From a virus: a DNA stretch of 64,000 nucleotides. This document shows, piece by piece, positions 3,438-44,678 of this stretch. A model generated the notes under the pieces. It had not been told where the DNA came from, ran no database searches, and was given only the letters and a program-made list of their open reading frames with translations. Each line of letters begins with the position of its first letter. Positions within the stretch are counted from its first letter, which is position 1. Made by a program: the position numbers and the translations under genes. Location of the stretch: positions 68,519 through 132,518 of IMG/VR virus record IMGVR_UViG_3300045988_117466; one strand, given 5' to 3'.

Positions 3438-3463
3438 TTCACTCTCACGCCTCCTTTCTGAAT

Positions 3464-4297
3464 TTAAAAAGCTCCAACCTTCTTAGGTTCGAGCCACTTG
3501 ATTTTTATTTTGCAACGACCTGTAATTTCAATCCGATTTTCTCCCGGGACAAGTCGTAGCCAATATAATTTTTGTACAGTGTCCATCTTGAACACATTTG
3601 ATAATACAATTCCTTTTCCATTCAGCTTAATAACTTGATGCTGACAATTGATCTCATAAGTACCTTTCGTATCCCATAAGTGCATTGTACTGTTATTGTC
3701 TGAATGATTTGTGATTTGAAGATCTGTCCAAAGCTCAGGGCTTTCAACTTCAATAATAGGATAAACATATTGTTCCAGCTCATCTGATCCACAATCAAGA
3801 ACTAAAGATCCATTATGATTAGGTGTTTCTAGTTTGTTTGTTAGGTCAAATAAATTACTTTCTTTTTCTACAAATCCATATGGTGCATTACACTCGAAGT
3901 CAACTTTTAAACCAGCAATTCCTCCAGCAAGAGCAGGAGTGACCTTAGTAACAATGGCATAATAAATGACATCATTCTTGCTACCATCACAACCATAGAA
4001 CTCTAATTTTCTATAGCTCTTAGGACTTGTTAACCACCTAGTAACTTCAGATACTTCATTTTCAGTAAATCGTTTCTGATCTTCATGAAGAAGAGTAATC
4101 TGGAATCCAAGTTTTCCTGAATATTTTGTATTATAGGCATGATAGATGTTACGATTCATAGTAGTTGAACCGTTTACGATCTCTCTATCAAGACTGAATG
4201 AATCTTCGGATTTGTCAAGATATCCAATGATCATTTTATGTGAAAAGTCCGATAGACTTTTATTGTTATAAGTAAAACTTACTGCATTTGAATACAT
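3464..4297 (-). CDS. distal tail protein (Dit-like), 277 aa
   Basis: ORF with SD (AAAGGAGAC) upstream. Canonical position between tape measure and Tal; size typical of Dit. Confidence 0.55.
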   Translation of the reverse strand: MYSNAVSFTYNNKSLSDFSHKMIIGYLDKSEDSFSLDREIVNGSTTMNRNIYHAYNTKYSGKLGFQITLLHEDQKRFTENEVSEVTRWLTSPKSYRKLEFYGCDGSKNDVIYYAIVTKVTPALAGGIAGLKVDFECNAPYGFVEKESNLFDLTNKLETPNHNGSLVLDCGSDELEQYVYPIIEVESPELWTDLQITNHSDNNSTMHLWDTKGTYEINCQHQVIKLNGKGIVLSNVFKMDTVQKLYWLRLVPGENRIEITGRCKIKIKWLEPKKVGAF

Positions 4298-9766: not shown

Positions 9767-10636
9767 TTAAAATTCCTTTGTAATCGGTTTTGTGAATGGT
9801 GTTTCACTTTCATAATAAGTATATTGCCCAGGGGATACCTTATCAGAATTTCCATAAGAAACTATTTCCATTTTGACAATCTTGTCCTTTGTTTCAAAAC
9901 TGCTTTCTTCCCACATAGATTGATATGCTTTTAAATTATAGTAGTATAGAGATTGATCGCTTACTACGGTTCCATTTTTATCATAAAAACGAATATCAAT
10001 ATTGGCCATATCATAATCATAGTCTGTTAGATTTTTGATTTTTATTCTATATGTCCGATATCCGTATGTAGATGCTTTGACTTCAATTTTTTCAATTTTA
10101 TACGTGTCATCTATAAGCGTGGCTCCTTTCGGACAATATCCATTCTCTTTTATAAGTTCGTCATATGATTTCTTATCCCCTTTGGTTGTAAAAGAAAGAT
10201 GTGTCTGATCAACTAACTTTTTTAGAATTTCCGCACGCTGGCTATTGTATACATAATAATTGTATTGTATCTTAGTCGGAGCACTGGTGTAATCATCAAA
10301 TAAATCATTTTGTGTATTTAAGGTTTTAATATATTCAGAAATTAAATTTTGTGTATTCTTGTTTTCGAATTGGATTTTAGTTTCTGAATATTTGTTTAGT
10401 GGTTTTAATTCAGTAGCGATATACTTTTGCATCATAGCTGCGTAGTCAGATTGAGATTGATTACTATCATCGGTCTTATCACTAATCTCCCATCTTTTTT
10501 CGAGCCCAGTTTTTAAATCATTTGCTACTTGTTTGTCTGTGATTTTGGCTTCTTTTTGAGGAGCATCTTTCCCACAAGCACAAAATAAACATAAACTTGT
10601 AAGAAGCATACATCCAATTAAAATTTTCTTTTTCAT
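9767..10636 (-). CDS. putative lipoprotein, intron cargo
   Basis: ATG at 10636 after GGAGGG. N-terminus MKKKILIGCMLLTSLCLFCAC|GKD (signal peptide with a lipobox-like Cys). Lies inside the intron. Confidence 0.6.
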   Translation of the reverse strand: MKKKILIGCMLLTSLCLFCACGKDAPQKEAKITDKQVANDLKTGLEKRWEISDKTDDSNQSQSDYAAMMQKYIATELKPLNKYSETKIQFENKNTQNLISEYIKTLNTQNDLFDDYTSAPTKIQYNYYVYNSQRAEILKKLVDQTHLSFTTKGDKKSYDELIKENGYCPKGATLIDDTYKIEKIEVKASTYGYRTYRIKIKNLTDYDYDMANIDIRFYDKNGTVVSDQSLYYYNLKAYQSMWEESSFETKDKIVKMEIVSYGNSDKVSPGQYTYYESETPFTKPITKEF

Positions 10637-10668
10637 ACATTTTCCCTCCATAATTTATTTATAAAGCA

Positions 10669-10705
10669 ATTATACATTATTTGACATGTTTTTCATAGAG
10701 AGAAT
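10669..10705 (-). promoter_or_regulatory. candidate SigA-type promoter inside the intron, upstream of the lipoprotein ORF
   Basis: Minus strand reads ...ATGAAAAACATGTCAAATAATGTATAATTGC. Perfect TATAAT at 10674-10669 preceded by TG; weak -35. Confidence 0.35.
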
Positions 10706-11024
10706 ATTTGTTTATCATATTTATCAGGTAATTTATCATTTCGATTTAAACATTACTGTACCGCCATTAGCTTGCGGCTCTACTCCTCATAAGAGGATAG
10801 TCGTTGAACCTTATCCTATTCGGATCTTGGCTGCTGATTGTCCATTGTAGCAGAAGCAGGGGATTTAACCTCGCTTCCATATAATTAATTCTTTTTACTT
10901 TCGTAGCGTTCACATCTAGGCATATTTCATCCTTCTGTTGTAGCTTAATTATCTTTAAGACTTTCCAGCAATTAGATAAATTTTCACATATGTATTACTA
11001 CATAAGGTCGCATATGTGGTTTAT

Positions 11025-14000
11025 ACGACAAGTTCGTCTCCTAATTCTCCTGTAAGAGCTCGTTCATCTTGTTTTAATCCCCAATCGCCACCATTAGCAT
11101 GAGCATCTCCAGCAGATGATTTGAGCTTATCCGTTTTCTCTTGTAAATATTTGTTCTTTTCAGCCTGCACAACAGGATTAATTTCTGATAAATCAGAGAT
11201 TTTTGTTGTTCCCATCGCAAGAGCACGGCTTCCAAGCTTCTTAATTGTTCCGTGAGCAAAAGCACCAAATTCTTCAATATCATCAAGCTCATTGTCGTAC
11301 CAGTCTGTTAAGTCATCAACAGTACCTTGAGCGAAAGCATTTGAATATGGAATGAAAGATCCGTGTGCATTTGCTGTACCATGGGCTTTGCCTTTCTTTT
11401 TTTTCTTTCCTGAGCTTTTCTTACCTCCTGAGGGCTCAGAAGGAGTACTACCAGTAACGAAATCAACAATTCGAGTGATATGTTTTGCTGCCCATCCTGC
11501 GATTGTTCCATCAGCAAGAGAGGTGTCCGCCTTAAGTTGTGCAGTGTTTGTAACTTTTTGGCTTTTCCATTCCTGAACTTTTTGATTCGCTTCAGTAATA
11601 TCTCCTTTAAGATGTCCGGTTTTATCAACCTCAATCCCAAGGTATTCTAAAAGCTTTTGATTAGCTTTAGAAGCATCTACGTCTAATTTTCCTTCTTTGT
11701 CAATTGGAATATTTAAAAAATCAGCTATTTCTTTGGTGGCTTTTTTAGTATCTGCATCAACTTTAACGGTTGTAGACTTCTTTCCGCCTTTGCCAAGATT
11801 ATCAATATCTTGTTTTGCCTTTTTGGTATTAGCCTTTACTTCAATAGTAACTTGACCTTTTTTCTTATGTTTATTGTATTCATCAACAAGACGTTTAATC
11901 TCTTTATCAATCTTATCATTGCCAGTTTTTTCTACGGTATTATCTTTGCCAACCTTAAGTCCAGATTTTAACTTATTAAGTTGAGTGTTTAATCCAGATT
12001 TTGTTTTGATTTGCTTTCTAAAAACACCATTATCACTTTTGCCACTGACCATATTGGCAGTTTCTTTTTCAAGTTTAGATACAGTTGTGTTTAAATTTTT
12101 GATTCTGCTTTTTAATTTACTTTGAGCTTCATTAAGTTTTTTCTTTGCACTTGCTTTATCATCGTCAGTTTTAGCATCTTTCCAAGTATCATAAGCATTG
12201 CTATAATCCTTTTGAGCTTTCTGTACAGAATCTCTAGCAGATTTAACTTTTTGATAAGAATTTTTCTTCCAGGATTCATATTTTTCGGTAGAATCTATAG
12301 CGTAATGGTTTTTGTCAGCTGTTGATTTAGCATTTGTAATAATTGAGTTACCATATTCAAACGCCTCTTCAGAATACTTATTACCATATTTGTTTACAAG
12401 CTTTTTATCATTGGAATCAACAGCTCCTTCAAATTTGCTTTCTGCATCTTTAAATTCAGCCTTATCCTGAGCAATCTCAATCTCAAACTTTAACTTCTTG
12501 ACCATCTCATCTGGGATATCTTCGCCAGCGTTTTTCAGTTTAAGAATCTGCTGTCTGTAATCCTCAATCTGTTCTCCTAATGCTGTTTTACCAGCACCAT
12601 CTTTCATATTTTTCCATTTATCAACCAGTTGGTCAACATAACTTTCAGCTTTTTCGTACTGTTCTGTAACAGATTTAAAATCAATCTTACCACCATAATC
12701 TTTTAAACGATTCAGTACAGCTTCGAAAGGTTCAATACCCATACCCATTGCTTTAGCGGCAGTAGCAGTATTAGTGATCTTTCCAGAATATGTACCTTCA
12801 GCAGTTTTCTTTAAAGTACCAAAATCAGTATTAGCTTTTTGGGATTTGGCAGATAAATCATCTAAGAATTTAACCAGACCGCTATCATCAGAAGTAAAAT
12901 ACTTAGTAGTCTTAGCCCATGTCTTATCAAAAGTAGCAGCATCAGTCTTACCAGATGAACTCATAACACTTGTCAATGTTTTGAAATCATCTGTTCCAAT
13001 AAGTCCTTTGTCACGTTCTTTCTTCTGAGCATTGAATGCTTCACGCATTGCTAAGTAAGTATCACCAGAGTCAGCTGTTTCTTTTGCTTGAAGATAATCA
13101 CTCCAAGTAGACTGAGAGTTTGCCTGATTGATTAATTTAAGACGCTCTTTCAACTGATCAAGACTACCTGTCCATTTCTCAGTTTTAGAATTTAAGATAT
13201 CAAAGGCTTGAGATGCTTCAGTAAGATTCAAACCATCAATGAAAGATTGAGTATCTTTATTATCACCAAGCTTTTCCTTGATATCTTCAATCATTGATTG
13301 AACATCTTTACCATCTTTTAAAAATCCTTCAAAATTTCCTTTATCGTCTAATTTGAAATCAACATTAAAAGAATCAGCCAAAGATTTGTTTAATTGCTCA
13401 ATACTAACCCCATCATCTGTGGCAGCCTCTTTAAGCTTATCATAAGCATCTTTGGTATTATTGAGCCAATTCTGAACACCCTTGTTACTAGATTTATCAT
13501 AGCTTTTAATAAACTTATCAAGAGCTCCTTGTGCTTTATCATCTTTAGCAAATTTCTTTGCTGCAGCAATAGTATTTTCTCGTTGTTCCTTGACCCAATC
13601 TTTATCTTTTAGATTATCTCTAGTCGCAGTATCTATGTTATAAGTATTAGATCCTAATCCTGTAAGGAAGCTTTGAGCACGACTACCCAATTTATTATAA
13701 TCAGTAATACTACCTGGCAATGAAGTGGCAATATCTTGATTGTATTGATCAAGAGCCTTTTGGGTTTTAGTAAGCCCAATTTTATATTTTTGAGCATAAC
13801 CTGAGATTTTAGCGATTTCTTCACTAAGATCAGTTCCCTTAGGTAAATAGTCTTCAGTTTTATCCAAGATCTGCTTATATGAACCAATAAATTTGTTCAT
13901 GTCAGCTTGTTTGTATAAATCGAAGGTTTGATCCTTTGGTAATTTCAACACATCTTTGGCAGCCTTGTTGAAAGCAGTAGTTAACTGGCTGGTTTTATCG

Positions 14001-15026
14001 CCTTGCAGACCGTTTCTTAACTGAGTAGTTAAGGTGTCCATGTCGTTGCCCCAGAACTTATCAACACCAGTTCCAGAAGCTTTCTTAACATTCTCTATGT
14101 TACCTTCAACTAACTTGTCCCAAGTTTCATCAGAAGCATATTTCTTTTGTGCGCTTTCTTGTTTCTTCTCCTGAGATTCAATCGCTTTGTCCATCAATCC
14201 AGATGTTTTAGCAATTGCATTTCCTTCTGCATCATATCCTGAAATAAGAGAAGGAGTAGTATCTAAAATTTCCTTGCGGATACTTAAGAATCTCTCATAA
14301 GAAGAAGTATCTAAACTGATGTTATTACCGTATTCGTCTACACCTTTGGATAAAGATTCAAATTCTACTTTATTCCCTTTGAGAGTGGAAATATTACTTT
14401 GGACATCAGACATTTTGTCCTGATAAGTGCTACGGGTTTTATCAGCTTTTTCTACCTTATCTTTGTCATAAGTAGCAGCTTTCTTAATGTTTTCAATTCC
14501 TTTAGAAAGAGCACTTCCTGCAAATTCCATGATTAGACTTGCACCTAATCCTAATAACACATTTGCGGCAAAAGCACCAGCCTTAGCAGCTATGCCAGAA
14601 GCTTTAACATTTTCCACGAAACCTGCTAATCCACCTGCGGCAGATTGAGCAATGCTACCAGATTTTTCAACCTCTTTGTTGAATTCTTCAAGACCTTTTC
14701 CATAACTATTTTTCTTATCACTAAGATCATAATTATTTTGCTTAGCTTGACCGTAAAGAGTACTAGCTGTATCACGACCTTTTTCAGTCTTCATTTCATC
14801 CTGAAGTCGCTTAAACATGTCCTCTTTTTCTTTGGTAGACTTATTACCAAAGATTTCAGGAACCATGCTGTTACTAAAGAAATCCTGCAATCTACTTTGA
14901 TCAGACTGCATATTCTCATAATTAGCCTTACGTCTTGTAGGACTAAGTGCATTCAGAATAGCACTACCAATTGGAAATTCATTTTTACCAGTTTCTTTAT
15001 TGTACTGTACAAGCAAACTGTTTACT
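11025..15026 (-). CDS. tail tape measure protein, exon 2 (about 1334 codons)
   Basis: Open frame begins right after a TGA at 15028-15026 with no SD or ATG. It ends ...LTGELGDELVV, which continues naturally into exon 3. Lys/Glu-rich coiled coil. Confidence 0.75.
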
Positions 15027-15383
15027 CAAGGGCAGGGAAATACCCTATTTTCACACTGGTAAAATATGTATTTGACAATCACTAATGCAATATTCTATAC
15101 TAATTATGTAACAAGAAATATGTATCATATCTCAAAGTAATAACACACATGGGGCTCACAATTCAGTGAGCCTTTTGTGTATCTGAAATTAAAGGAGAAG
15201 AGAGGTTCATAAAGATACCTCTTTTTCGCAATTAACCTTGCAATATTTGGAAACATAAGTTATAATTAGAAACATCATGGAATAATTAGTTCCCCAATTA
15301 ATTATTTTCATACTAAAGGCATTCCTAGGAGGTAGGGATGCCTTTTCTCCATTTATGGGGTAACGATTCGTTCACCCATCAAA

Positions 15384-16190
15384 TTAACTTTCTAACTGAT
15401 CTTCCAGATCCTTAATCTTAGAATCTCTAAATGCAATTTTCTTTCCAGTACTACGATGATTTGTTTCTATGTATCTACGTTTCAGATTGTTTAGTACATA
15501 CTCTGCAGTCATTCTGTACATTGGATTTAGAGAACCAGAAGTTTCAATAATCGATTCAAGTTTATCATCGATCATTGTTACGATTTTCTGCTTATACTCA
15601 GTTGCATTTAGTTTTCTATGATACTCATAGCGGTCTTTCTTTTTTAAATGAACGTGAACATCAATGATCTTATCAACAGTGGCTTCCAGATTTGTGTAAT
15701 CAGATTCTAAAAGAACACGATCAATGTTGCGTACAGAATATTTAATTTTATCTGCATCATACTGTCTCTGAAGCTGACATTCATCTGAAACTGCTACATC
15801 ATATAGATCGTTATTATCTTGCTGAAGTTGTGTGATCAGCTCAATCATTCTCTCAAAAGCATCTGTGTATCTAGCTGTAAAGATAAGAGCTTTGTTACCA
15901 GTAAACTTGTTTACCAGCATTGCAAATCCTTTACGATCAATATAATACATAGGACGCTCCTGGTTATTTAAATCAAGATAAGAGCCGAGGGAAAAATTTC
16001 CGGCGGCTAATTCAGGGATAACTTCTATAAAATGACGAATCTTTTTCATTACATCTGCATGGTCTTTCCCATAAGTCTCAGCCACATTGAGAGAAGTGGT
16101 GTACACATCACCATTGATCTCTTCAAGACCAAATTCCTCATTAATTTCTGCGATTTCACATTCAATAGCTTTCTTTGTTTCTTTTAACAT
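15384..16190 (-). CDS. Rha-family phage regulatory protein, intron cargo
   Basis: N-terminal TTSLNVAETYGKDHADVMKKIRHFI...YYIDRKGFAMLVNKFTGNKALIFTARYTDAFERM matches the Rha (Phage_pRha) pattern. SD AAAGGAGA. Confidence 0.75.
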   Translation of the reverse strand: MLKETKKAIECEIAEINEEFGLEEINGDVYTTSLNVAETYGKDHADVMKKIRHFIEVIPELAAGNFSLGSYLDLNNQERPMYYIDRKGFAMLVNKFTGNKALIFTARYTDAFERMIELITQLQQDNNDLYDVAVSDECQLQRQYDADKIKYSVRNIDRVLLESDYTNLEATVDKIIDVHVHLKKKDRYEYHRKLNATEYKQKIVTMIDDKLESIIETSGSLNPMYRMTAEYVLNNLKRRYIETNHRSTGKKIAFRDSKIKDLEDQLES

Positions 16191-16275
16191 AATTCAATTT
16201 CTCCTTTTAATATAAACTTAATTTCAAAAGGGGTCGCATTTCACGACCCCCTATCAACAACAATCTCACCAAACT

Positions 16276-17082
16276 TTAATCTTCAAGATCCCCAACAACT
16301 CTGTAAACAAGTTTCTGACCTTTACCAGTTACATAAGTCTGTGGAACAATCACATTGCAAATCACATGTTCACCAACTTCAAAACATCCGTTCTCAACGT
16401 ATCTCTGATATGGCATGTTGTCCCGCATCAGGATTCCATTACTTCTCAGAATCTCAAAAAGACGATTCCTTCCAATGTCATATCCATCATTCTGCAACAA
16501 TTTGGCCATTGTGTTCATGTCGATCGTATCAGAAGAAGCAGTAACACATCTTGCAAAATCTACATCTTCTTTGGAAGCTTCAAGTTCTCCACGAAGCTCT
16601 GCGATTGTAGCTTGCTGAATTTCTAATGCTTTGAGTACAAACTCAGCTTCAGACAGATTTTTATATGGAATGTATCCACCTGTACGTCTGATCTGTGGAA
16701 GAACTTCAGATGTTACCCATCTTTTGAAACGATGTAATTTTTCAATTCTCTCTTCAATAAGGGGGTCATTTTGTGACACCCCCTTTGCTTTAGCAGGTTG
16801 CATTAAGAATAATAATGAATATAGTCCTGATTCATTAAGAACTGTGATGTTTTGCATTCCTCCAGCGGTTTGAATTTTTGCCATTGTTTTGTCAGCTTTG
16901 TCAATTCTACGCAAGCTACGCTTGTGATTTGTATCTCCAAAAGCTATGCATACATCTTTTCCAACAAACCAAGGTTCATTGTCAATCTCAACGCATCTGA
17001 TTGATCCAAATTCGTCATTTACGAAGTTCATGATCTGATTGTTATTTCCTACTTCATTTTCTGCTTTTGTTAAATTTGCCAT
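16276..17082 (-). CDS. Bro-N / KilAC (Ant-like antirepressor) protein, intron cargo
   Basis: Bro-N pattern (IRCVEIDNEPWFVGKDVCIAFGD...ESGLYSLLF...FKRWVTSEVLPQIRRTGGY). KilAC-like C-terminus (MAKLLQNDGYDIGRNRLFEILRSNGIL). SD AAAGGAGA. Confidence 0.8.
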   Translation of the reverse strand: MANLTKAENEVGNNNQIMNFVNDEFGSIRCVEIDNEPWFVGKDVCIAFGDTNHKRSLRRIDKADKTMAKIQTAGGMQNITVLNESGLYSLLFLMQPAKAKGVSQNDPLIEERIEKLHRFKRWVTSEVLPQIRRTGGYIPYKNLSEAEFVLKALEIQQATIAELRGELEASKEDVDFARCVTASSDTIDMNTMAKLLQNDGYDIGRNRLFEILRSNGILMRDNMPYQRYVENGCFEVGEHVICNVIVPQTYVTGKGQKLVYRVVGDLED

Positions 17083-17162
17083 ATTAAATTCTCCTTTTCT
17101 TCAGAAAGGTGCACCAAATGGCATAGAACAGATGGTGCTGATGATTTGCTTATCCTTCTATG

Positions 17163-17245
17163 CATATATGGCTAATTTACTACCCCTTTAAAACACCAGG
17201 CTCTACCTAATGTTTTAAGACTCAATTAATGTGGTAAGTCTGCTA
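17163..17245 (-). promoter_or_regulatory. conserved ~80-nt structured element, copy 1 (upstream of the Bro-N ORF, inside intron 1)
   Basis: Minus strand: UUACCAC-AUUAAUUGA-[long stem]-AGGU-AGA-GCCU-[long stem]-GUAGUAA-...AUAUAUG. Homologous to 43548-43630 and 43733-43815, with compensatory changes in the stems. Confidence 0.6.
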
Positions 17246-17698
17246 GAGCAGTATAAAAAGAGTATTAAATTATGTTAATGAGTATTTATAATATATCATA
17301 TAAAATTCATTTCCCTATGTGCAAGCATGTTTCCATGCTGATAATTTTCTAGCGGCACATTCGCATACAGTTCTGATCATCCCTTTCTGATGTCACTCGT
17401 AAGGTGAGTTAACCAGATTCCCATTATGATCGATGGACGTTCCTCTAATATAGAGGCTTCGCTGCGGATTCTGTATAAATATTGATCTTATTACTATATC
17501 TTAGGAATTACCCCTTGCCCTTAATACATCACTGTACTAAGTTAGTAATCAATATCGTTTAACAGTTCCCGTACATAAATTATCAAAAAGTATTTCAGTT
17601 TCGGTTGTTTTCTAAGCAATCTCTTATTTGTATCACCATTTCGATACAAACTCGTTCTGTGTTACCACTAGATTGCTCTGGGCATTGTACATGAGGAC

Positions 17699-20600
17699 AA
17701 CTGATAATTTGCCCTACCCAGCTTTCCTTTCGCTCCTGCGACTCCTAAAGCACCCATAAAGGCTGTTCTAAGAAGCCCAGCTTTAGTTACTAAATTTGTT
17801 ATTTGAGTTCCAGCATCTACAAGTCCTTTGATAAAATCAGAAGAAATAGAAGTGTTCCACATTTCTTGGAAACTTGCTGTCAGCTGATCAACTTTACCTT
17901 GGATGGAATCAAGTTGAGTTTCGTTTTCACGAAGAGCTGATCCTTCTGAGTTTTGTGTTTCGTTGTAGACTTTTTCAAGCATCTCTGGCTTCTGTAAAAT
18001 ACTGGCAACAATATTAGCTCTATTTTTTCCTGCAATTTTCTCTAAAATAGAAGCTTGTTTAAGGTCACCACCATCGGTAGAACCAATTTCGCTCCAGATC
18101 TTACCCAATCCAAGTAAAAATTCATATGGATTTTTATAAGATCCATCATCTTTTAATAAATCAAAGCCTTTGTAGTCGTTTGATGCTACTTTAGTTTGAT
18201 TTTTAATGAGATCTCTCAACTGAGATGTGTTCTGAATGTAACCATCAACATCTTCACCTGCTTCTTGAAGCACATTCATATCAGTGCCTCGAATTCTTAA
18301 GGATACTGTTTTTAAACCAGCTCCAACGCTCTCAGGATTTTGCACGACGGAATTCCCAACTGTAGTAAGAGCAACTGACTGTTCATAGTTAGCACCTGCC
18401 GCCTGTAAAGCACTAGCAGATCTCTGTAATGAACTAGCAATCTCATCTGATGAAATAGGCTCTAAGTTACCGATATTATTCAAAACATCAACAACATTCT
18501 CTACATCATCAGCACCCTTATCGAATCCCTGCATAATAGAAATCAATGCATTAGTAGCATCATCTACCTGCTCAAATTCTGATACATTCATGAGAATACC
18601 TGTCCACTTAGACATCTTCTCAGAATCTTGTGTGTTATAACCTAATCTAGCCCAGTCAGCAGTAGATTTGGTTAATTCCACAGCATCTCTACCGATATCT
18701 TTACCAGTAGCATACATATCTTTTTCGACAGTAGCATAAACATCACTCGTATCACTTGTGACTTTCTTTAACTCTGTCATTGCAGCATCCATTTCTTTGA
18801 TGCTTTCAATTCCTTGTTGGAATCCTTGCCATACGACATCGATTCCACCCATTGAGATCAAGTACTTACTTAACTTAGTAACTTCTTGACCCATATCTCC
18901 AACAATTTGTCCGAACAAACTCTTATATTCAGAACGACTCTTAAGCTGTGATCTAGCAATACCAGTATCCTGATTAAAATTAATAGCATACTTTTCAAGC
19001 TTTCCATCATCTCTTGATCTTGCTTTGATATAAGCAGCCATTCCATTTCTACCCATACTGGTTTCAAGAATGTTACTGTTTACACCAGAAGCTCTAAATA
19101 ATTCTTCAGCTTTAGCTTCATTGAAATCATTTAAGGATAATCCTTCTCCGATAACAGTTCCCTGATTGTTCTGGAGCTTAAATTGGTTTCTAAGTCTACC
19201 ATGTTCAGTAAGCTCAGCGTTCAGTCTATTAAGCTCTCTAATATCTTCCTCAATTTCTTTATTGTCAAAGAAAACATCTCCACTATGTTTTTCTTTTAAA
19301 TCTCTAATTCGGTTAACTGTAGCTTCAACCTTAGTCGCAAATTCTGTTGTATATTGTTCAAGATCTTGACTAACAATGGTCTTTGATAAAGCTCTGTCAG
19401 CAGCATTTTTAACACGATCAGATTTAGGATTAGTATTCCCTAATGCTGTACCATCGTTTGCTCCACCAACATTTCCACCGGCTAAAACCTTGTTCATGTT
19501 CTTCAAGCCAGTAGCAATCTCACCAGTAAGATTAAATTTCTTATTTAAGTTATCAACCAGTCTTGTAACTTCACGAATTGAACTACCAATACCAGCAAAA
19601 GCACCTGCGATCTTAGCAGAATAAGCAGTAGACTTGTCAGCTAGATTAGCAATCTTATTTGTCATAGTCTCAATATCAGAAGCTTTCTTGTCTGTAAAAG
19701 ACTGTCCTGTATTGAATTTAACTTTTAAATCAAGATTCTTTTTCAGATCATTGATAATCTTCTCAACAGTAACTAAATCGTCTAATACAGCATCAGTATT
19801 GATACCAACTTTAATAGGCTCAGAAGCTTTTTCTCTTAAAGAAGTAAGCTTGCTTTCGGCTTGTGTTAACTCTTCATCATTAACATTGATGTCAATTTTT
19901 GTGTCTCCGCTGTTAGAATCCTCTTTAAATTTTTGAGTTGAAGTAATAGCTTTCTCAAGATCTTCAACATTGCCTTTAAAATTAACCGCAACGTCAATAG
20001 CATCCTTAGAGCGAAGTTCATTTACTTGTTGAAGAATGTTATCAATATTCTCTGTATTAGCTTTAAAATTAATAGTAATATCTATATTTTCTTTTGATCT
20101 TAGTTCATTAATTTCTTGTAAAATTGTATTGAACTCGGAATCGTTTGCTTTAAGATTAACAACGATATCTTTGCCTTCGTAAGAAGCAATCTTTTCATCA
20201 ACCTTAGCCAATGCAGATTCTAACTGAGAAGTGTCAGCAGTAACTTTTACAGAAGATTCTTTAGGGTGTTCACTTTCTGTAACACTGTTTGTCTTAGTTT
20301 CAGTAACATTTCTGCTTGGAAATTCACGAATTGCATCTTTGTTTTTGCTTAACCATTCACGGCTTTCTTGAGACCAAGGAGTTTCAATAGTAGCTCCTTT
20401 TTCAGCTTTAATAGATGTGTATGTATCAACAGTTTTAACAGCTTCTTGAAGACCTTTGGCTTCCTCGGCATAGATATTTTCTCCGTTCTTAATCTTTTCA
20501 TTGAATTTCTGGATATATTCTCTAGCGCTTTGGAAAGTACTGATCAGGTCTTTGTTACTCATGTCTTTCATGTCAGCAGGCATTTCAAAATCTTTATCAA

Positions 20601-21789
20601 CTTCCCTTTGATGGAGTTCTAATTTTTTAACTGCTTCAGATAAGAATTGTGTAATATTTTTATCAACAGCATGAGTAGTAGAACCTTCTTCTGGCTGATA
20701 ATTGCTTAGTATTTTACTGTAATACTCGGCTTTCTGTAATTCCTCATCGGTAAGAGTTTCACCTTTGGATTGTTTTTCCATCAGGTTCTTACTGCCGGCT
20801 TTTGCACCGTTGTATTGTTGAGGACTAATTGCTTGTCCTTCTTGAAATTTATATGGTTTACTAGAGTCAAACCCAGAAATCAAAATACCTTCTTGGGCTA
20901 AAATATCACTCCATTGTTTATTGAATTGGTTTTTAAGTTTATTGGTTACTCCTGTAGTCTTTTTGATATTTCTATCAGTGCTAGTCATAGCCTGAGTAAG
21001 AGCCTTATTAACCTGTTTAACAACATCCTCTTCGATCGGAGATAAAATATTTTTTAAGTCGATTCCCTGGGCTTGGAACAGGCTTTTATAACCTTCTGTA
21101 CCTGCAAAATCAGTTTGTCCTGTTAGCAATTCTTTTATAAACTTTTGCCTAGAAGTAATAGTATTTCTTAACTCACCAGCCTGTTTGAGCATTTCATCGT
21201 TCTTACTCCAATCAGAATTTGACATTAAACCATGCAGTTCTTCAAAAGCTTTTCCAATATCTTCTTGAGCTAGCATTCCAGCCATTGCATATTCTTTAAA
21301 ATCATTTAAAGAGATACCATTTTTAGAATTACCATGTAATTCGTTATATTGTGTTTTAGATTCGTTGTAAAAATCTTTATATTTATCTTGCTTATAAGTC
21401 TTTTTTTGTACTTCGTGTACCTTAGAAGCAGCTCTTGTGGCAAGATCACTGTCCTCGTAGCTACGTTTAGAAACCTTGCTTAAATTGTCGTTCTTAATTT
21501 TTTCAAGATCATTGTAAGTAGTTTTAAGATTCTTTAACTTCTTTTCTGCATCGGCCAAATCTTTAGATTCATATACAAATTGAAAATTTGTTAATCCAGT
21601 TTTATCAATATAACTTCTGATGCTTTTAGCAACTTTATCCATAGAGGATTTATTGATATTAGCACCAATAGGTACTTGGACTTGTTTAAAACCATTTACT
21701 ACTTCGCTTTTAGCTTTTTCTAAAGAGGCTTGATCAACGTCAACCCCCATAGAGGCAGTAAAAGAAATTACTTGTGTAGTTTCTGCCAT
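17699..21789 (-). CDS. tail tape measure protein, exon 1 (about 1363 codons)
   Basis: ATG at 21789 with SD GGGGGTGA. Contains a TP901-type tape-measure core-like segment (...ELTKSTADWARLGYN...DDATNALISIMQGF...SSLQRSASALQAAGANYEQSVALTTVGNSVVQNPESVGAGLKTVSLRIRG). The unspliced frame stops 10 codons into the intron (TAG 17668). Confidence 0.8.
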
Positions 21790-41184: not shown

Positions 41185-41257
<73 letters not shown>

Positions 41258-41258
41258 A

Positions 41259-41294
41259 CAAAAAGAGTACATTGTAACTACCAACAATGTACTC
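41259..41294 (-). terminator. hairpin plus U-run immediately 5' of tRNA-Thr
   Basis: 10-bp stem GAGUACAUUG/CAAUGUACUC followed by UUUUU on the minus strand. Could be a terminator or an RNA-processing hairpin. Confidence 0.45.
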
Positions 41295-41441
41295 AAATTT
41301 AGAAAAGAGGTATAAATTATGATTCCTACAAGAAATCTTAATAGCTTTGTAAATCTTTCTGAGGTATGAAACAACAATAGAAAAGCGCAATAATCAAAAC
41401 TTCACAAGAAAGGAGATAATATGATTCCTCAGAAAGATTAA

Positions 41442-41513
41442 CAGGGATAACTGGATTTGAACCAGTGAATACAGCAGTCAAAGTGCTGTGCCTTACCGCT
41501 TGGCGATATCCCT
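41442..41513 (-). tRNA. tRNA-Gln: tRNA-Gln (anticodon UUG)
   Basis: Acceptor AGGGAUA/UAUCCCU, anticodon stem CAGCA/UGCUG with loop CUUUGAC, T-arm ACUGG-UUCAAAU-CCAGU; 72 nt. Confidence 0.85.
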
Positions 41514-42126
41514 ATATGTATTTTAATTTTAAAGCAGGTCTTCACCTTACAGTCATTTGTGGAATAGTTTGTTCTGCAACATAGTAGATAAGTCTGAGCT
41601 TTGAGGAGCGACCTCTAACTTCTTACCTAAGTCTAAAAGACCAGTTCTATGACATGATCAATACATGCAATGTCAACCCGCCATTCAGAATTAAGTTTTA
41701 TTGTTATATACTCTATTAGCATATATATTCATTTTGAATTTGAACTTACCCTTAACTGACTTGAGCGACATACCAGCGACTTTTCTTATACACTGTCTTT
41801 TGAACAGCTTCACATCAAACTACATTATTTGGCTTTTCCACCTTTTACGTACCTGCCAGAGTACGCATTGAAGTGGATTATTCTCCACAGGAGCGTCTAT
41901 TGTTGTAGCGAAAAGTTCTGTGCGTTAACCAGACCAAAATGCTGCACAATATCCATTTGCTTGAGAGTTTCTCTCTTGTCCATATCAAATCACTCCGACA
42001 TAAAAAGAGACACAAAGAACGTATCCGTACAATGTATCTCTCCAATTCGACATATGTGCCTAGAATATTTCTCGGACTCATGGCATTGAGTTTTATAACC
42101 GAGTTGCTTATGTTTTAAAATACAAA

Positions 42127-42198
42127 CACCCTAAGCTGGATTTGAACCAGCACGAACGGTTTTGGAGACCGTCATTCTACCAACTAAATTATTAGGGC
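42127..42198 (-). tRNA. tRNA-Trp: tRNA-Trp (anticodon CCA)
   Basis: Acceptor GCCCUAA/UUAGGGU, anticodon stem ACGGU/ACCGU with loop CUCCAAA, T-arm GCUGG-UUCAAAU-CCAGC. Confidence 0.85.
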
Positions 42199-42205
42199 GA
42201 TATTA

Positions 42206-42279
42206 CTGACATGACAGGACTCGAACCTGCAACACCAACGTCCGTAGCGTTGTGCTCTGTCCAGTTGAGCTACATGTCA
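42206..42279 (-). tRNA. tRNA-Arg: tRNA-Arg (anticodon ACG)
   Basis: Acceptor UGACAUG/CAUGUCA, D-arm GCUC-AACUGGACA-GAGC, anticodon loop CUACGGA, T-loop UUCGAGU. Confidence 0.85.
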
Positions 42280-42322
42280 TTAAAATTCGACCTCAATCCA
42301 CATAGGATTTTGAGGTACTTTC

Positions 42323-42408
42323 GTCCCTGTTGAGGGAATCGAACCCACTCGTGACCGAAGCCATCTGATTTACAGTCAGATCCGCCTCCTTAGCGGGATA
42401 AACAGGGA
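42323..42408 (-). tRNA. tRNA-Tyr: tRNA-Tyr (anticodon GUA), class II
   Basis: Acceptor UCCCUGU/ACAGGGA, anticodon loop CUGUAAA, long variable arm, T-loop UUCGAUU; 86 nt. Confidence 0.8.
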
Positions 42409-42450
42409 TATAAGCCCGTGAGCTCGAAAGACATCACAGGACAACCTAAA

Positions 42451-42536
42451 CGCTGCGACAAGGATTCGAACCTTGAGGTCACTAGGACACAATAGTTTTC
42501 AAGACTACGCCGTTATAACCATTTCGGTACCGCAGC
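42451..42536 (-). tRNA. tRNA-Ser: tRNA-Ser (anticodon UGA), class II
   Basis: Acceptor GCUGCGG/UCGCAGC, anticodon loop CUUGAAA, long variable arm, T-loop UUCGAAU; 86 nt. Confidence 0.8.
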
Positions 42537-42541
42537 AAAAG

Positions 42542-42633
42542 CGTACAGAGTGGGCTACGACCCCACGTTACATGTATTCGCATGTAAACCCAATTAGCAG
42601 TCGGGCGCCTTAAACCAACTCAGCCATCTGTAC
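42542..42633 (-). tRNA. tRNA-Ser: tRNA-Ser (anticodon GCU), class II
   Basis: Acceptor GUACAGA/UCUGUAC, anticodon stem CCCGA/UUGGG with loop CUGCUAA, long variable arm, atypical T-loop GUCGUAG; 92 nt. Confidence 0.7.
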
Positions 42634-42817: not shown

Positions 42818-43201
42818 TTACTTGACTAAGTATACTTTTCGGTATTTCTTCCCAAATTTTCTAACTTGGCTGTGAGAAGAGAAGTACATGTCGATGTGTT
42901 TTCCTTTTACGCCGCCTCCGACATCTTCGGCTACCAGTGTCTTACCACCAATTCTCACTTTGCTACCGAGTTTAATTTTTCTTCGATCGACTGAGATAGT
43001 TCTACCGGCTTTTGCTCTGCGTCCAGAAGCAGTACGATTTCCCCATCCACCAGAACAACTACGACAACCACAGTAAGCTGTGATTTTGTATGTTCCTAAA
43101 CATTTGACTTTTTTGCTCTTTGCTGGAACAGAAGAAGTAAGTCCTCTAACTGTGATCAACAAGGCCATTAACAGTGCGATCATTGAAATTCTCTTTTTCA
43201 T
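42818..43201 (-). CDS. secreted 3D-domain protein (MltA/RlpA-like double-psi beta-barrel, cell-wall active)
   Basis: Signal peptide MKKRISMIALLMALLITVRG. 3D-domain pattern YKITAYC...GNRTASG..AKAGRTISVD...LGSKVRIGG.TLVAEDVGGGVKGKHIDMYF. Confidence 0.75.
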   Translation of the reverse strand: MKKRISMIALLMALLITVRGLTSSVPAKSKKVKCLGTYKITAYCGCRSCSGGWGNRTASGRRAKAGRTISVDRRKIKLGSKVRIGGKTLVAEDVGGGVKGKHIDMYFSSHSQVRKFGKKYRKVYLVK

Positions 43202-43406: not shown

Positions 43407-43529
43407 TTATTTACTCTTGGAATCTTTTTTGATCTGCTGGCGTTTCTTGAATGGAACTGGTTTCAATCCCCATGCAGTTCTTAAATCTTCCAGTGAGTTG
43501 TAATGTTCAGTTACTGTATTCCTTTTCAT
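43407..43529 (-). CDS. mini-ORF, 40 aa, basic (below the ORF-track cutoff)
   Basis: ATG at 43529 preceded by GAAAGGAAGGA, immediately downstream of structured-element copy 2. MKRNTVTEHYNSLEDLRTAWGLKPVPFKKRQQIKKDSKSK. Confidence 0.3.
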   Translation of the reverse strand: MKRNTVTEHYNSLEDLRTAWGLKPVPFKKRQQIKKDSKSK

Positions 43530-43547
43530 TGTCTATATCCTTCCTTT

Positions 43548-43630
43548 CATATATCACTATTTTACCACCCCTTCAAAACACTAGGTTTTACCTGGGTTTC
43601 TGAGGGGTATTTAATGTGGTAATTCTGCTC
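43548..43630 (-). promoter_or_regulatory. conserved ~80-nt structured element, copy 2
   Basis: UUACCAC...CCCCUCAGAAAC-CCAGGU-AAA-ACCUAG-GUUUUGAAGGGG...GUGGUAA, then AAAUAGUGAUAUAUG and an SD. Confidence 0.6.
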
Positions 43631-43732
43631 ACCACTCAAAAATTTGTCTTAAAATACACTTTTTAGTATATATAATTAACTTTATTTTCTTTTTGAAAAT
43701 CTGATCTTTTGAGCATTTCCTTATCCTTCCTT

Positions 43733-43815
43733 CCATATATCACTATTTTACCACCCCCTGAAAAACGTAGGTAGAACCTAGCGTTTTCAGGGTCAATTAA
43801 TGTGGTAATTCTTTT
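43733..43815 (-). promoter_or_regulatory. conserved ~80-nt structured element, copy 3
   Basis: UUACCAC-AUUAAUUGA-CCCUGAAAACG-CUAGGU-UCU-ACCUAC-GUUUUUCAGGG-G-GUGGUAA, then AAAUAGUGAUAUAUGG, an SD and a 17-codon mini-ORF (43663-43716). Confidence 0.6.
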
Positions 43816-43823
43816 TGCTGGCC

Positions 43824-44678
43824 TTATTTTTTGTCAGAATTATAGTATTTAGTATATCTATTTAACTGCATTTCATTCTTACAAGAAATACAATACTGTC
43901 TAAGCCGTCCTTTACGATGCTTTTTCTTTTTTGAGATGTCTCTAAAAGGTTCTCCACAACAAGAGCATACAGAAATCTCAGGATATCCAATAAAGTGAAG
44001 ATATCTGTTCCCAAGATTCTTGAAGTCTGTAATTTCAAGAGCGACATCTCCTGAATCAGCAAGAATATCTACAGAGAAGTTTAAGCTATTAACTTTCTTG
44101 CTCATTGTTATACAATCGCTTCTGAACAGTCTGCCGATTATTTGGCATCTACGTTCTCTTGTACCTACTGTATTACCCAATGAGAATAAATCTTTGTAGT
44201 CTGTATTCACCCAGCTGTTATTTTGAGGATTCAGAGCATTATAATACTTGGCCAAACAAAGAGCAGTGAAGAGGATCTTTTGATCTCTAAGATTCTCTAA
44301 CCCATTTATAGTTTCCATTTCAGATTCATAGATCGGCAGTGAATCAATTTCTACAAGAGGATACTTTTTAGCTTTATGAATTATCTCATCAATGCATGAA
44401 TACCATTTGGCTTCTCTGTAGCTCTCACAGGACTCTTTTAAGAACTCATTGATAGTTTTATATACCTCTGCAGGTTCTAAGCCTTCCTCGTGGATATAAT
44501 ACTTTGCAAGCAGGGTAGCAGTATATGGGATACTGCCTTCCAGCTCTTTTGTTTCTAAAATTTTTTCTACCAGTTTTTTTTCATTTAGTACGATATTAAT
44601 AACAATCAGCCTCCTCAAACATAGATGATTCAATTTGTTTAATAGTTTCAATGACGAAAGAATCTCCGTCATATTCAA
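43824..44678 (-). CDS. hypothetical protein with C-terminal zinc ribbon
   Basis: C-terminus CSCCGEPF...CISCKNE. The ORF-track start overlaps the RNA polymerase 3' end by 83 nt, so the true start is probably internal. Confidence 0.45.
   Translation of the reverse strand: MNMTEILSSLKLLNKLNHLCLRRLIVINIVLNEKKLVEKILETKELEGSIPYTATLLAKYYIHEEGLEPAEVYKTINEFLKESCESYREAKWYSCIDEIIHKAKKYPLVEIDSLPIYESEMETINGLENLRDQKILFTALCLAKYYNALNPQNNSWVNTDYKDLFSLGNTVGTRERRCQIIGRLFRSDCITMSKKVNSLNFSVDILADSGDVALEITDFKNLGNRYLHFIGYPEISVCSCCGEPFRDISKKKKHRKGRLRQYCISCKNEMQLNRYTKYYNSDKK

Follow-up and report, generated by a model that had tools for sequence, protein, structure and literature searches.

We analysed a window of 64,000 nucleotides (nt) of viral DNA, positions 68,519 to 132,518 of IMG/VR record IMGVR_UViG_3300045988_117466, in which the coding sequence of a tape-measure protein is interrupted on the minus strand. 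The first open reading frame (ORF1, 21789..17668) encodes 1373 amino acids (aa) with a PhageMin_Tail domain recognised by Pfam, and ends at the stop codon TAG 17670-17668. The second (ORF2, 15016..11021), 1331 aa when counted from a TTG, lies 2.65 kb downstream, and its frame is open immediately past TGA 15028-15026. No purine-rich Shine-Dalgarno-like stretch was found ahead of TTG 15016, the start used by gene callers. A first-pass annotation of this stretch had described the break between these two codons and the missing Shine-Dalgarno sequence, both confirmed here, and had proposed a group I intron in the tape-measure gene; that proposal is supported by the pairings and homologues presented below, with revised boundaries. 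A megablast search of the region against a phage collection gave no match, and tblastn recovered only tape-measure proteins with at most 35% identity in phages of Brevibacillus, Enterocloster, Clostridioides and Thomasclavelia. The features that define the exons, the splice sites and the predicted ribozyme are the following.

17716..21789, minus strand: tape-measure exon 1, 1358 codons, with PhageMin_Tail; its end is set by P1
15014..17715, minus strand: predicted group I intron, 2702 nt, delimited by P1, P10, P9.0, the terminal G and the in-frame junction
11021..15013, minus strand: tape-measure exon 2, 1330 codons plus stop, in the ORF2 frame
17678..17721, minus strand: P1 region, exon strand CUGGGU 17721-17716 and internal guide GCCCAG 17683-17678
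17715-17711 / 17698-17694, minus strand: P1a hairpin AGGGC/GUCCU, within the P1 region
17690-17685, minus strand: P10 guide GUACAA, which pairs with UUGUAC of exon 2 (15012-15007)
15007..15020, minus strand: 3' splice region, with the P9.0 3' strand CAGUU 15020-15016, a U, the terminal G15014 and the P10 strand UUGUAC
17615..17677, minus strand: P2, AGCAAUCU 17677-17670 / AGAUUGCU 17622-17615, enclosing hairpin P2a
17650-17643 / 17634-17627, minus strand: P2a, inner hairpin of P2
17462..17598, minus strand: P4-P5 domain, with a split P4 5' strand (CUG 17598-17596 and CGGG 17571-17568) and Q, UCCGCAG 17468-17462
17456-17451 / 17447-17442, minus strand: P6, in the core block 17368..17456
17431-17426 / 17380-17375, minus strand: P7, GAUCAU/AUGAUC, core block
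17422-17418, minus strand: P3', GGGAA, core block
17417-17411 / 17392-17386, minus strand: P8, core block
17372-17368, minus strand: P9.0 5' strand AACUG, core block
17324..17339, minus strand: P9-type hairpin AGCAUG-GAAA-CAUGCU with a GNRA loop, which closes the ribozyme block

Splice sites and ribozyme core

At the 5' splice site the final exon base, U17716, forms a U.G pair with the guide, as is required of group I introns. The same rule applies in each clade of homologous introns (L numbers): a guide located about 32 nt into the intron pairs with the last six bases of the exon, and the junction is U.G. The strands vary in a compensatory way, from CUGGGU/GCCCAG in the window to GUGGGU/GCCCAC in L139 and L140, UGGGGU/GCCCCA in the L142 clade and GCGGGU/GCCCGC in L183/L186. 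This pairing across clades places the 5' splice site of the window after U17716. Exon 1 then ends with the codons GGA AAG CUG GGU (GKLG), and the ORF1 frame runs 16 codons into the intron, up to TAG 17670-17668.

The 3' splice site is fixed by two further pairings. P10 forms between the beginning of exon 2 and six nucleotides that lie 5' of the guide: GUACAA/UUGUAC in the window, GAAAAY/GUUUUC in L139 and the L142 clade, and GAAUAU/AUAUUC in L140. In P9.0, bases shortly before the terminal G pair with bases just past P7, as AACUG/CAGUU in the window, GGACU/AGUUC in L140 and GAGCU/AGCUC in L186. The intron ends CAGUU-C-G, CAGUU-AAC-G, AGUUC-C-G and AGCUC-U-G each fit their own P9.0 5' strand and P10 guide. 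The combination of terminal G, P9.0 and P10 that marks the end of group I introns is found at G15014, and P9.0 and P10 covary between clades. The window intron accordingly ends ...AAACAGUUUG, and exon 2, from 15013, begins CUUGUAC and opens with the codons CUU GUA CAG UAC (LVQY). The supposed TTG start of ORF2 is the tail of the conserved intron end CAGUUUG.

The junction is in frame and of phase 0 in all clades in which both splice sites can be placed (the window, L139, the L142 clade, L140 and L186). Since both junctions lie at codon boundaries, the predicted product is a single protein, ...GAKGKLG continued by LVQYNKETG, of 1358 + 1330 = 2688 aa. At the RNA level the predicted junction joins CUGGGU to CUUGUAC, that is, ...GGAAAGCUGGGU to CUUGUACAGUAC.

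The catalytic core occupies the first ~390 nt of the intron and ends near 17320. P4, P6, P7 and P8 occur in the canonical group I order with Q, R and S, although the 5' strand of P4 is split. The first-pass annotation had located the Q, R and S strings correctly; they form P4', P7 and P7'. P2 and P2a are perfect 8-bp helices whose sequence differs by clade with complementarity kept. In P4, UCYGCAG pairs with YUG plus CRGG, with the compensated variants CGGG/UCCG, CAGG/UCUG and CAAG/UUUG (the last in L183). A P5 extension of ~100 nt separates the P4 5' strand from Q. The split arrangement of P4 is also present in unrelated environmental introns. No P7.1/P7.2 was found between P7, P3' and P8. 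Register shifts in the MAFFT alignment of the 5' region (A3) meant that helices there were checked by explicit strand tables.

Pairing in P6, P7 and P8, scored in alignment A5 on ten distinct sequences, holds in 96.7% of cells, compared with 36-52% in slid-partner controls, and changes on both sides are seen at 10/19 pairs. The covariation score of these helices is 0.420 against 0.158 in shuffles, and none of 500 shuffles reached 0.420. P7 illustrates the pattern: GAUCAU/AUGAUC in the window differs from the family form GACUAU/AUAGUC by two compensated swaps.

P3 is the odd helix. Its strands, assigned by homology as CAACC and GGGAA, form two Watson-Crick pairs in the window and five at the same positions in L226, L193, L140 and L003. 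Among all segments 5' of Q able to pair with P3', none offers an alternative partner of the right topology. The best candidate, AUUCCUA (7 bp), was rejected: it sits in the P5 extension, and its counterparts in other clades belong to local hairpins or to P5. Several clades keep these odd P3 strands while P1, P10 and P9.0 go on covarying, which suggests that they are tolerated and do not signal decay. The P1a loop (17703-17699) contains CAGUU, identical to the P9.0 3' strand 15020-15016, which lies 2.7 kb downstream, and this loop sequence is confined to clades in which P3 is odd. The loop could keep the P9.0 partner occupied until transcription reaches the 3' end.

The intron family and the Rfam model

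Over 50 related contigs from phages and Lachnospiraceae have homologous introns of the same architecture at this site. All 14 of the 14 close relatives of exon 2 in IMG/VR are interrupted; their matches begin at the same residue, and the insertions measure 1.9-3.2 kb. A first DNA pattern, GGTAAC..AACGAGTT, was discarded as unspecific, nearly all of its matches being due to chance. A pattern of the P4'-P6-P7 segment recovered 41 stretches in IMG/VR, among them L139, L140, L003 and the L142 clade, and seven in Lachnospiraceae genomes or metagenome-assembled genomes (MAGs), such as Lientehia hominis NSJ-141 and MGYG-HGUT-00118. In contigs that include the flanking sequence, a tape-measure exon ending in ...(C/G/U)(U/G/C)GGGU precedes the intron. 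The surrounding genes belong to the SPbeta-type Pfam families YonD, YonB, YomW and YomU. One member, L186, is ORF-less and only ~480 nt long, so that the ribozyme block alone spans the exons there.

The Rfam model RF00028, whose gathering score is 50 bits, matches two homologues below that score: L003 (37.3 bits, E 7e-8) and L139 (28.9 bits, E 1.3e-3). L003 is the DNA past the stop of protein P0005, which is 59% identical in exon 1, and its core is textbook-like, with AAUCCGCAGCC, a P6 hairpin, GUUCAGAGACUAUAA and GGGAUAGUCC. The introns of L003 and L139 align block by block with that of the window. Calibration on environmental introns with the same Q-P6-R signature gave 64-93 bits where P4 is contiguous and 24-38 bits where it is split. 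The window is missed altogether, which we attribute to the P5 extension of ~100 nt and the mismatched P3 on top of the split P4. The first-pass annotation had suggested this model as a check, with failure counting against the intron; the model does fail on the window, and judging from the homologues we take this failure to reflect insensitivity of the model.

Other introns were seen in and near the relatives. Exon 1 of the tape measure carries two further introns in relatives (L009 1600-2205, L014 2304-3154, L017 2908-3486, L005 1152-2696). At site A the order is exon ...GUAGGU, intron AAAUAC...UUUUUG, exon AACUCAG; at site B it is exon ...CCGUGGGU, intron GAAUAUAG...GGCCG, exon GUCUAAAAAC. 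The exon-1 intron of L005 contains a 382-aa ORF (CapR/treble-clef Zn fingers, weak RAP match), and those of L009 and L017 contain a gene remnant. The window lacks an intron at sites A and B, and the frame reads straight through. A different group I intron, scoring 81.6 bits with RF00028 and thus above the gathering score, lies in another gene at L140 284-654, just upstream of a YonB-like ORF. In L141, past the homologous end of exon 1, positions 10190-10930 contain a distinct group I-like core (GUUCACAGACUGUAAAU) and, past it, two forward ORFs; the exon-1-end site may host unrelated introns. In the Lachnospiraceae MAG contig L182, 2.8 kb separate two family copies whose 5' exon sequences are nearly identical; the pair could result from duplication or from an assembly artefact.

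Cargo genes and their leader

Between the ribozyme and the 3' splice site the intron carries two genes, placed, as the first-pass annotation had proposed, 3' of the catalytic core.

17250..17278, minus strand: sigma-70-like promoter match TTAACA-17-TATACT, 10/12 positions, a consensus match only
17139..17241, minus strand: D1 stem-loop leader, one of three copies in the window
16276..17082, minus strand: cargo gene 1, Bro-N + KilAC (ANT), 268 aa (Pfam 9e-17 and 4.1e-21; PHROG 130)
16226..16250, minus strand: terminator-like hairpin GGGGUCG-UGAAAUG-CGACCCC plus UUUU between the cargo genes, read from the sequence
15384..16190, minus strand: cargo gene 2, Rha family, 268 aa (Pfam Phage_pRha 6.6e-22)

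Cargo gene 1 matches PF02498 with 61.9 bits (cut-off 25.6) and PF03374 with 75.8 bits (cut-off 25.3), and the anti-repressor Ant family PHROG 130 at 8.9e-65. Cargo gene 2 matches PF09669 with 78.3 bits (cut-off 29.9), and its PHROGs matches are to anti-repressor or Rha-like regulator families. The identities proposed by the first-pass annotation are borne out, all three Pfam matches lying above the gathering score. Its statement that these genes take the place of a homing endonuclease agrees with the Pfam and PHROGs results, which give only Bro-N, ANT and Rha in the window intron; no LAGLIDADG, GIY-YIG, HNH, His-Cys box or PD-(D/E)XK endonuclease was detected with these databases in the window cargo or in the members examined. 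The Bro gene is directly preceded by a Shine-Dalgarno sequence. Past the Rha gene, 370 nt contain no convincing ORF. The hairpin at 16226..16250 was missed by a stem-loop scan because it is followed by only four U. Neither gene has a paralogue in the window.

The structured element ahead of the Bro gene, reported earlier as also occurring twice elsewhere in the window, is confirmed. The other two D1 copies lie at 43524-43626 and 43710-43812 on the minus strand, and the three copies are 69-75% identical. They share a conserved 22-pair stem, in which one pair varies between U-A, C-G and G-C. D1 is present in all window-clade introns at the same position, ahead of whichever cargo gene comes first; it is absent from the introns examined in other clades and matches no Rfam family. 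The two distant copies are located in the gap between ORFs 43824..44678 and 42818..43201, and each is followed by AAGGAAGGA and an ORF of 35-40 aa. Elsewhere in the window, a ROOL RNA (RF03087, 303.7 bits, 41516-42127) lies within a cluster of seven tRNA genes (41185-42633, minus strand).

Introns that are 98-99.8% identical across the ribozyme region (first ~560 nt) differ in cargo. Within the window clade we found Bro (268 aa) with Rha, a ~75%-identical Bro (252 aa) with Rha, Bro with a short Rha, and Rha alone; the intron of L017 lacks Bro. The short Rha-domain protein is a separate Rha type and is sometimes broken into two ORFs. The cargo of other clades includes an antisense gene for a HEPN (pEK499_p136) protein, ORFs of 154 and 305 aa and a gene for a small membrane protein; some members have none. 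An antisense ORF of 130-168 aa encoding a double Zn ribbon adjoins the 3' splice site in L139 (8346-8843), L182, L184 and the L142 clade; the protein has no family match beyond Zn ribbons, and no remnant of its gene was found in the window intron. One recurrent antisense cargo protein matches Zn_ribbon_IS1595 at 1e-5. The closest Bro homologues found outside the clade are 59% identical; their genes are free-standing, in other phage contigs, and lack a neighbouring intron core, D1 or tape-measure exon. These differences between near-identical ribozymes suggest that the cargo behaves as a swappable module, and they fit the earlier suggestion that the intron is a vehicle for regulatory genes.

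The HEPN pEK499_p136 protein belongs to the cargo of L179. In L226 the intron core is immediately followed, on its 3' side, by a match to the abiF RNA motif at 3461-3497, which scores 32.4 bits against a gathering score of 37. These two observations suggest that some members may carry defence-type genes.

Alternatives, proposed mechanism and relation to known systems

The anatomy of the sequence, the compensatory changes and the identities of the cargo genes are direct observations. From them we conclude, with a probability of about 0.78, that a group I intron with the boundaries 17715..15014 probably lies within the tape-measure gene of an SPbeta-like Lachnospiraceae phage. A number of results weigh against this conclusion. 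RF00028 found no match in the window at the gathering score, nor with the limit relaxed to E<=10 over 3.3 kb, nor on a 511-nt slice, and none in the copies of the intron in Lachnospiraceae genomes. P3 has only its two Watson-Crick pairs, and the P4 5' strand is split by an insert, a weak one of 24 nt in the window and one or two clear hairpins in relatives. Within the intron, transcripts of the tape-measure gene would have to extend through the terminator-like hairpin 16250-16226 and further stem-loops on the same strand, and sigma-70-like sites are no more numerous in the region than in shuffles. Gene callers annotate two tape-measure proteins in every relative, and a continuous intron-less homologue was not found: a junction-chimera search gave 796 matches, all ending or starting at the junction, and a search with the exon-2 N-terminus gave 11, all fragments. 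The missing Rfam match, the poor P3, the terminator-like hairpins and the pervasive annotation as two proteins would all suit a dead intron in a split gene, in which the ribozyme has decayed and the tape measure consists of two cooperating polypeptides (1373 aa, and ~1331 aa from TTG 15016). We consider this unlikely. P1, P10 and P9.0 still compensate in clades with the odd P3, which is expected only if splicing is under selection; the junction is of phase 0 in every clade with both splice sites placed; and exon 2 lacks a Shine-Dalgarno sequence, its apparent TTG start being the conserved CAGUUUG intron end. The boundaries given in the first-pass annotation fare worse still and have almost no chance of being correct. 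It placed the 5' site after U17699 and the 3' site after G15027 (junction 17699/15026), giving ...GRANYQ-L-VNSLLVQYNK..., and so predicted RNA joining ...UAUCAGUU to AGUAAACAG and the peptide ANYQLVNSLLVQYNK. A U and a G do exist at those positions, the frame would be preserved, and 'R(A/I)NYQL' also ends protein P0021. However, AUCAGUU has no guide that would give a U.G pair, and the stretch AGGGCAAAUUAUCAGUUGUCCU is the P1a hairpin, conserved as RNA. L140 (AGGACUAAAACGUUUGUCCU) and L003 (UGACCCAAAACGUAGGGUGA) differ there, yet keep GUGGGU/GCCCAC, and the conserved CAGUUUG end together with P10 puts the 3' site 13 nt further downstream. With U17716 and G15014 indicated by P1, P10 and P9.0, the earlier sites are off by 17 nt (5') and 13 nt (3'), so that 'RANYQL' and 'VNSL' would be translated intron and not part of the protein; 'RANYQL' comes from translating the P1a hairpin (AGGGC...GUCCU), in place of which L140 and L003 have other sequence.

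Two further explanations concern the cargo and the origin of the intron. The Bro-N/KilAC protein, the Rha protein or both might serve in the mobility or splicing of the intron and so represent a homing protein or maturase of a new kind. The lack of a classical homing endonuclease in the intron and the family members examined, the predicted DNA-binding domains of both proteins, and a weak P3 that could need a protein helper speak for such a role. We nevertheless regard it as improbable: near-identical ribozymes carry Bro and Rha, Rha alone, or a different, short or broken Rha; other clades and ORF-less members keep the odd P3 with neither protein; and the closest other Bro genes are free-standing, with no nuclease domain detected by Pfam or PHROGs. 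The earlier suggestion that these proteins were recruited for intron mobility is left without support, the cargo being swapped or lost between 98-99% identical introns and replaced in other clades by unrelated genes, some of them antisense. It is very improbable that the intron is, or derives from, an IStron-like fusion of a group I intron with a transposon, the cargo bay being a transposon residue. The layout is the same (a 5' ribozyme, then genes, then a far 3' splice site), and the 5' exon end (U/G)GGGU recalls the TGGG target motif of IS607-type IStrons (PMC10690162); the antisense match to Zn_ribbon_IS1595 is to a transposase-type Zn ribbon. However, no TnpA/TnpB was found in the cargo of the members examined, in which transposon ends were not searched for; all copies examined lie at the homologous point of a tape-measure-type gene, none of them scattered; and the GGGU is accounted for by P1.

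For the group I intron in the tape-measure gene we propose the following route. Late transcription of the tape-measure gene would give a precursor in which the first ~390 nt of the intron fold as a ribozyme. The guide GCCCAG would pair with the exon end CUGGGU, with U.G at the splice site, and a guanosine cofactor would attack after U17716. P9.0 (AACUG/CAGUU), the terminal G15014 and P10 (GUACAA/UUGUAC) would then recruit the 3' splice site, 2.3 kb downstream, and ligation at two codon boundaries would restore one tape measure of 2688 aa. The stretch from P9 to the 3' end would serve as a cargo bay, in which Ant-like and Rha-like genes have been acquired here. Genes inserted in this bay would be tolerated, since they are spliced out of the mRNA. 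The promoter-like site and the D1 leader, shared with other phage genes, suggest that the cargo is probably expressed independently of splicing. Splicing itself, expression of the cargo and the tolerance of accessory genes in a gene whose length is critical are what we infer from the sequence comparisons.

This reading has practical consequences for annotation. The tape measure of this phage group is called as two proteins plus 'morons', and the correct product would be one protein of 2688 aa. A widespread lineage of gut-phage introns is missed by the standard Rfam model, so group I introns in Lachnospiraceae phages are probably under-counted. Introns are usually regarded as carriers of their own homing genes; the 3' loop of this family appears to hold exchangeable accessory genes, anti-repressors here and defence-like genes elsewhere. 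If true, this would show how phages can add genes within essential structural genes free of cost. The family also offers a natural test case for splicing in which P3 is non-canonical and 0.1-3.4 kb of foreign sequence must be spanned. It is a rather unlikely extension that the lineage is a general 'safe harbour' for accessory genes, where anti-repressor, HEPN/defence-like, membrane and antisense Zn-ribbon genes may accumulate and swap inside a gene whose length determines that of the tail. In a stronger version of the same proposal a cargo protein is a new mobility or splicing factor, and the Bro-N/KilAC, Rha or antisense Zn-ribbon protein may be needed because P3 is non-canonical.

The layout has a counterpart in the nrdD (sunY) intron of phage T4, in which the core precedes an ORF in a 3' peripheral loop and a remote 3' terminal segment has to pair back for the active structure to be completed. 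The ORF of the T4 intron encodes the homing endonuclease I-TevII, whereas the cargo in the window consists of two regulator-type genes with their own leader. In domain content these genes resemble the free-standing Ant (Bro-N/KilAC) and Rha genes of phages, from which they differ in lying inside an intron of a late structural gene. Full-text searches of the literature yielded no description of a group I intron that carries Bro-N, Ant or Rha genes, which is weak negative evidence.

Introns in tape-measure genes are already known, and it is the anti-repressor-type cargo that is new. Group I introns occupy three sites in tape-measure genes of Bacillus cereus-group prophages (Tourasse and Kolsto 2008, PMC2504315); they belong to subgroups IA1/IA2 and contain a homing endonuclease gene, remnants of one, or no ORF (PMC2504315). 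As in those prophages, the window has an intron of self-splicing type in the very long tape-measure gene of a Firmicutes phage; the gene has several insertion sites, with two more in exon 1 of relatives, and P1 and P10 adapt to the site. Unlike the B. cereus-group introns, the window intron escapes the Rfam model, combines a split P4 with a mismatched P3, and has anti-repressor-type genes as its cargo. The IStrons of Clostridia combine a group I intron with an IS605/IS607 transposon (PMC10690162). They share with the window intron a ribozyme that lies wholly at the 5' end, kilobases of coding cargo and a far 3' splice site, and in both cases splicing would silence the insertion. The IStron cargo is TnpA/TnpB with a guide RNA, in dispersed copies, whereas the window intron, in which no transposase was found, lies at a fixed site and carries accessory phage genes.

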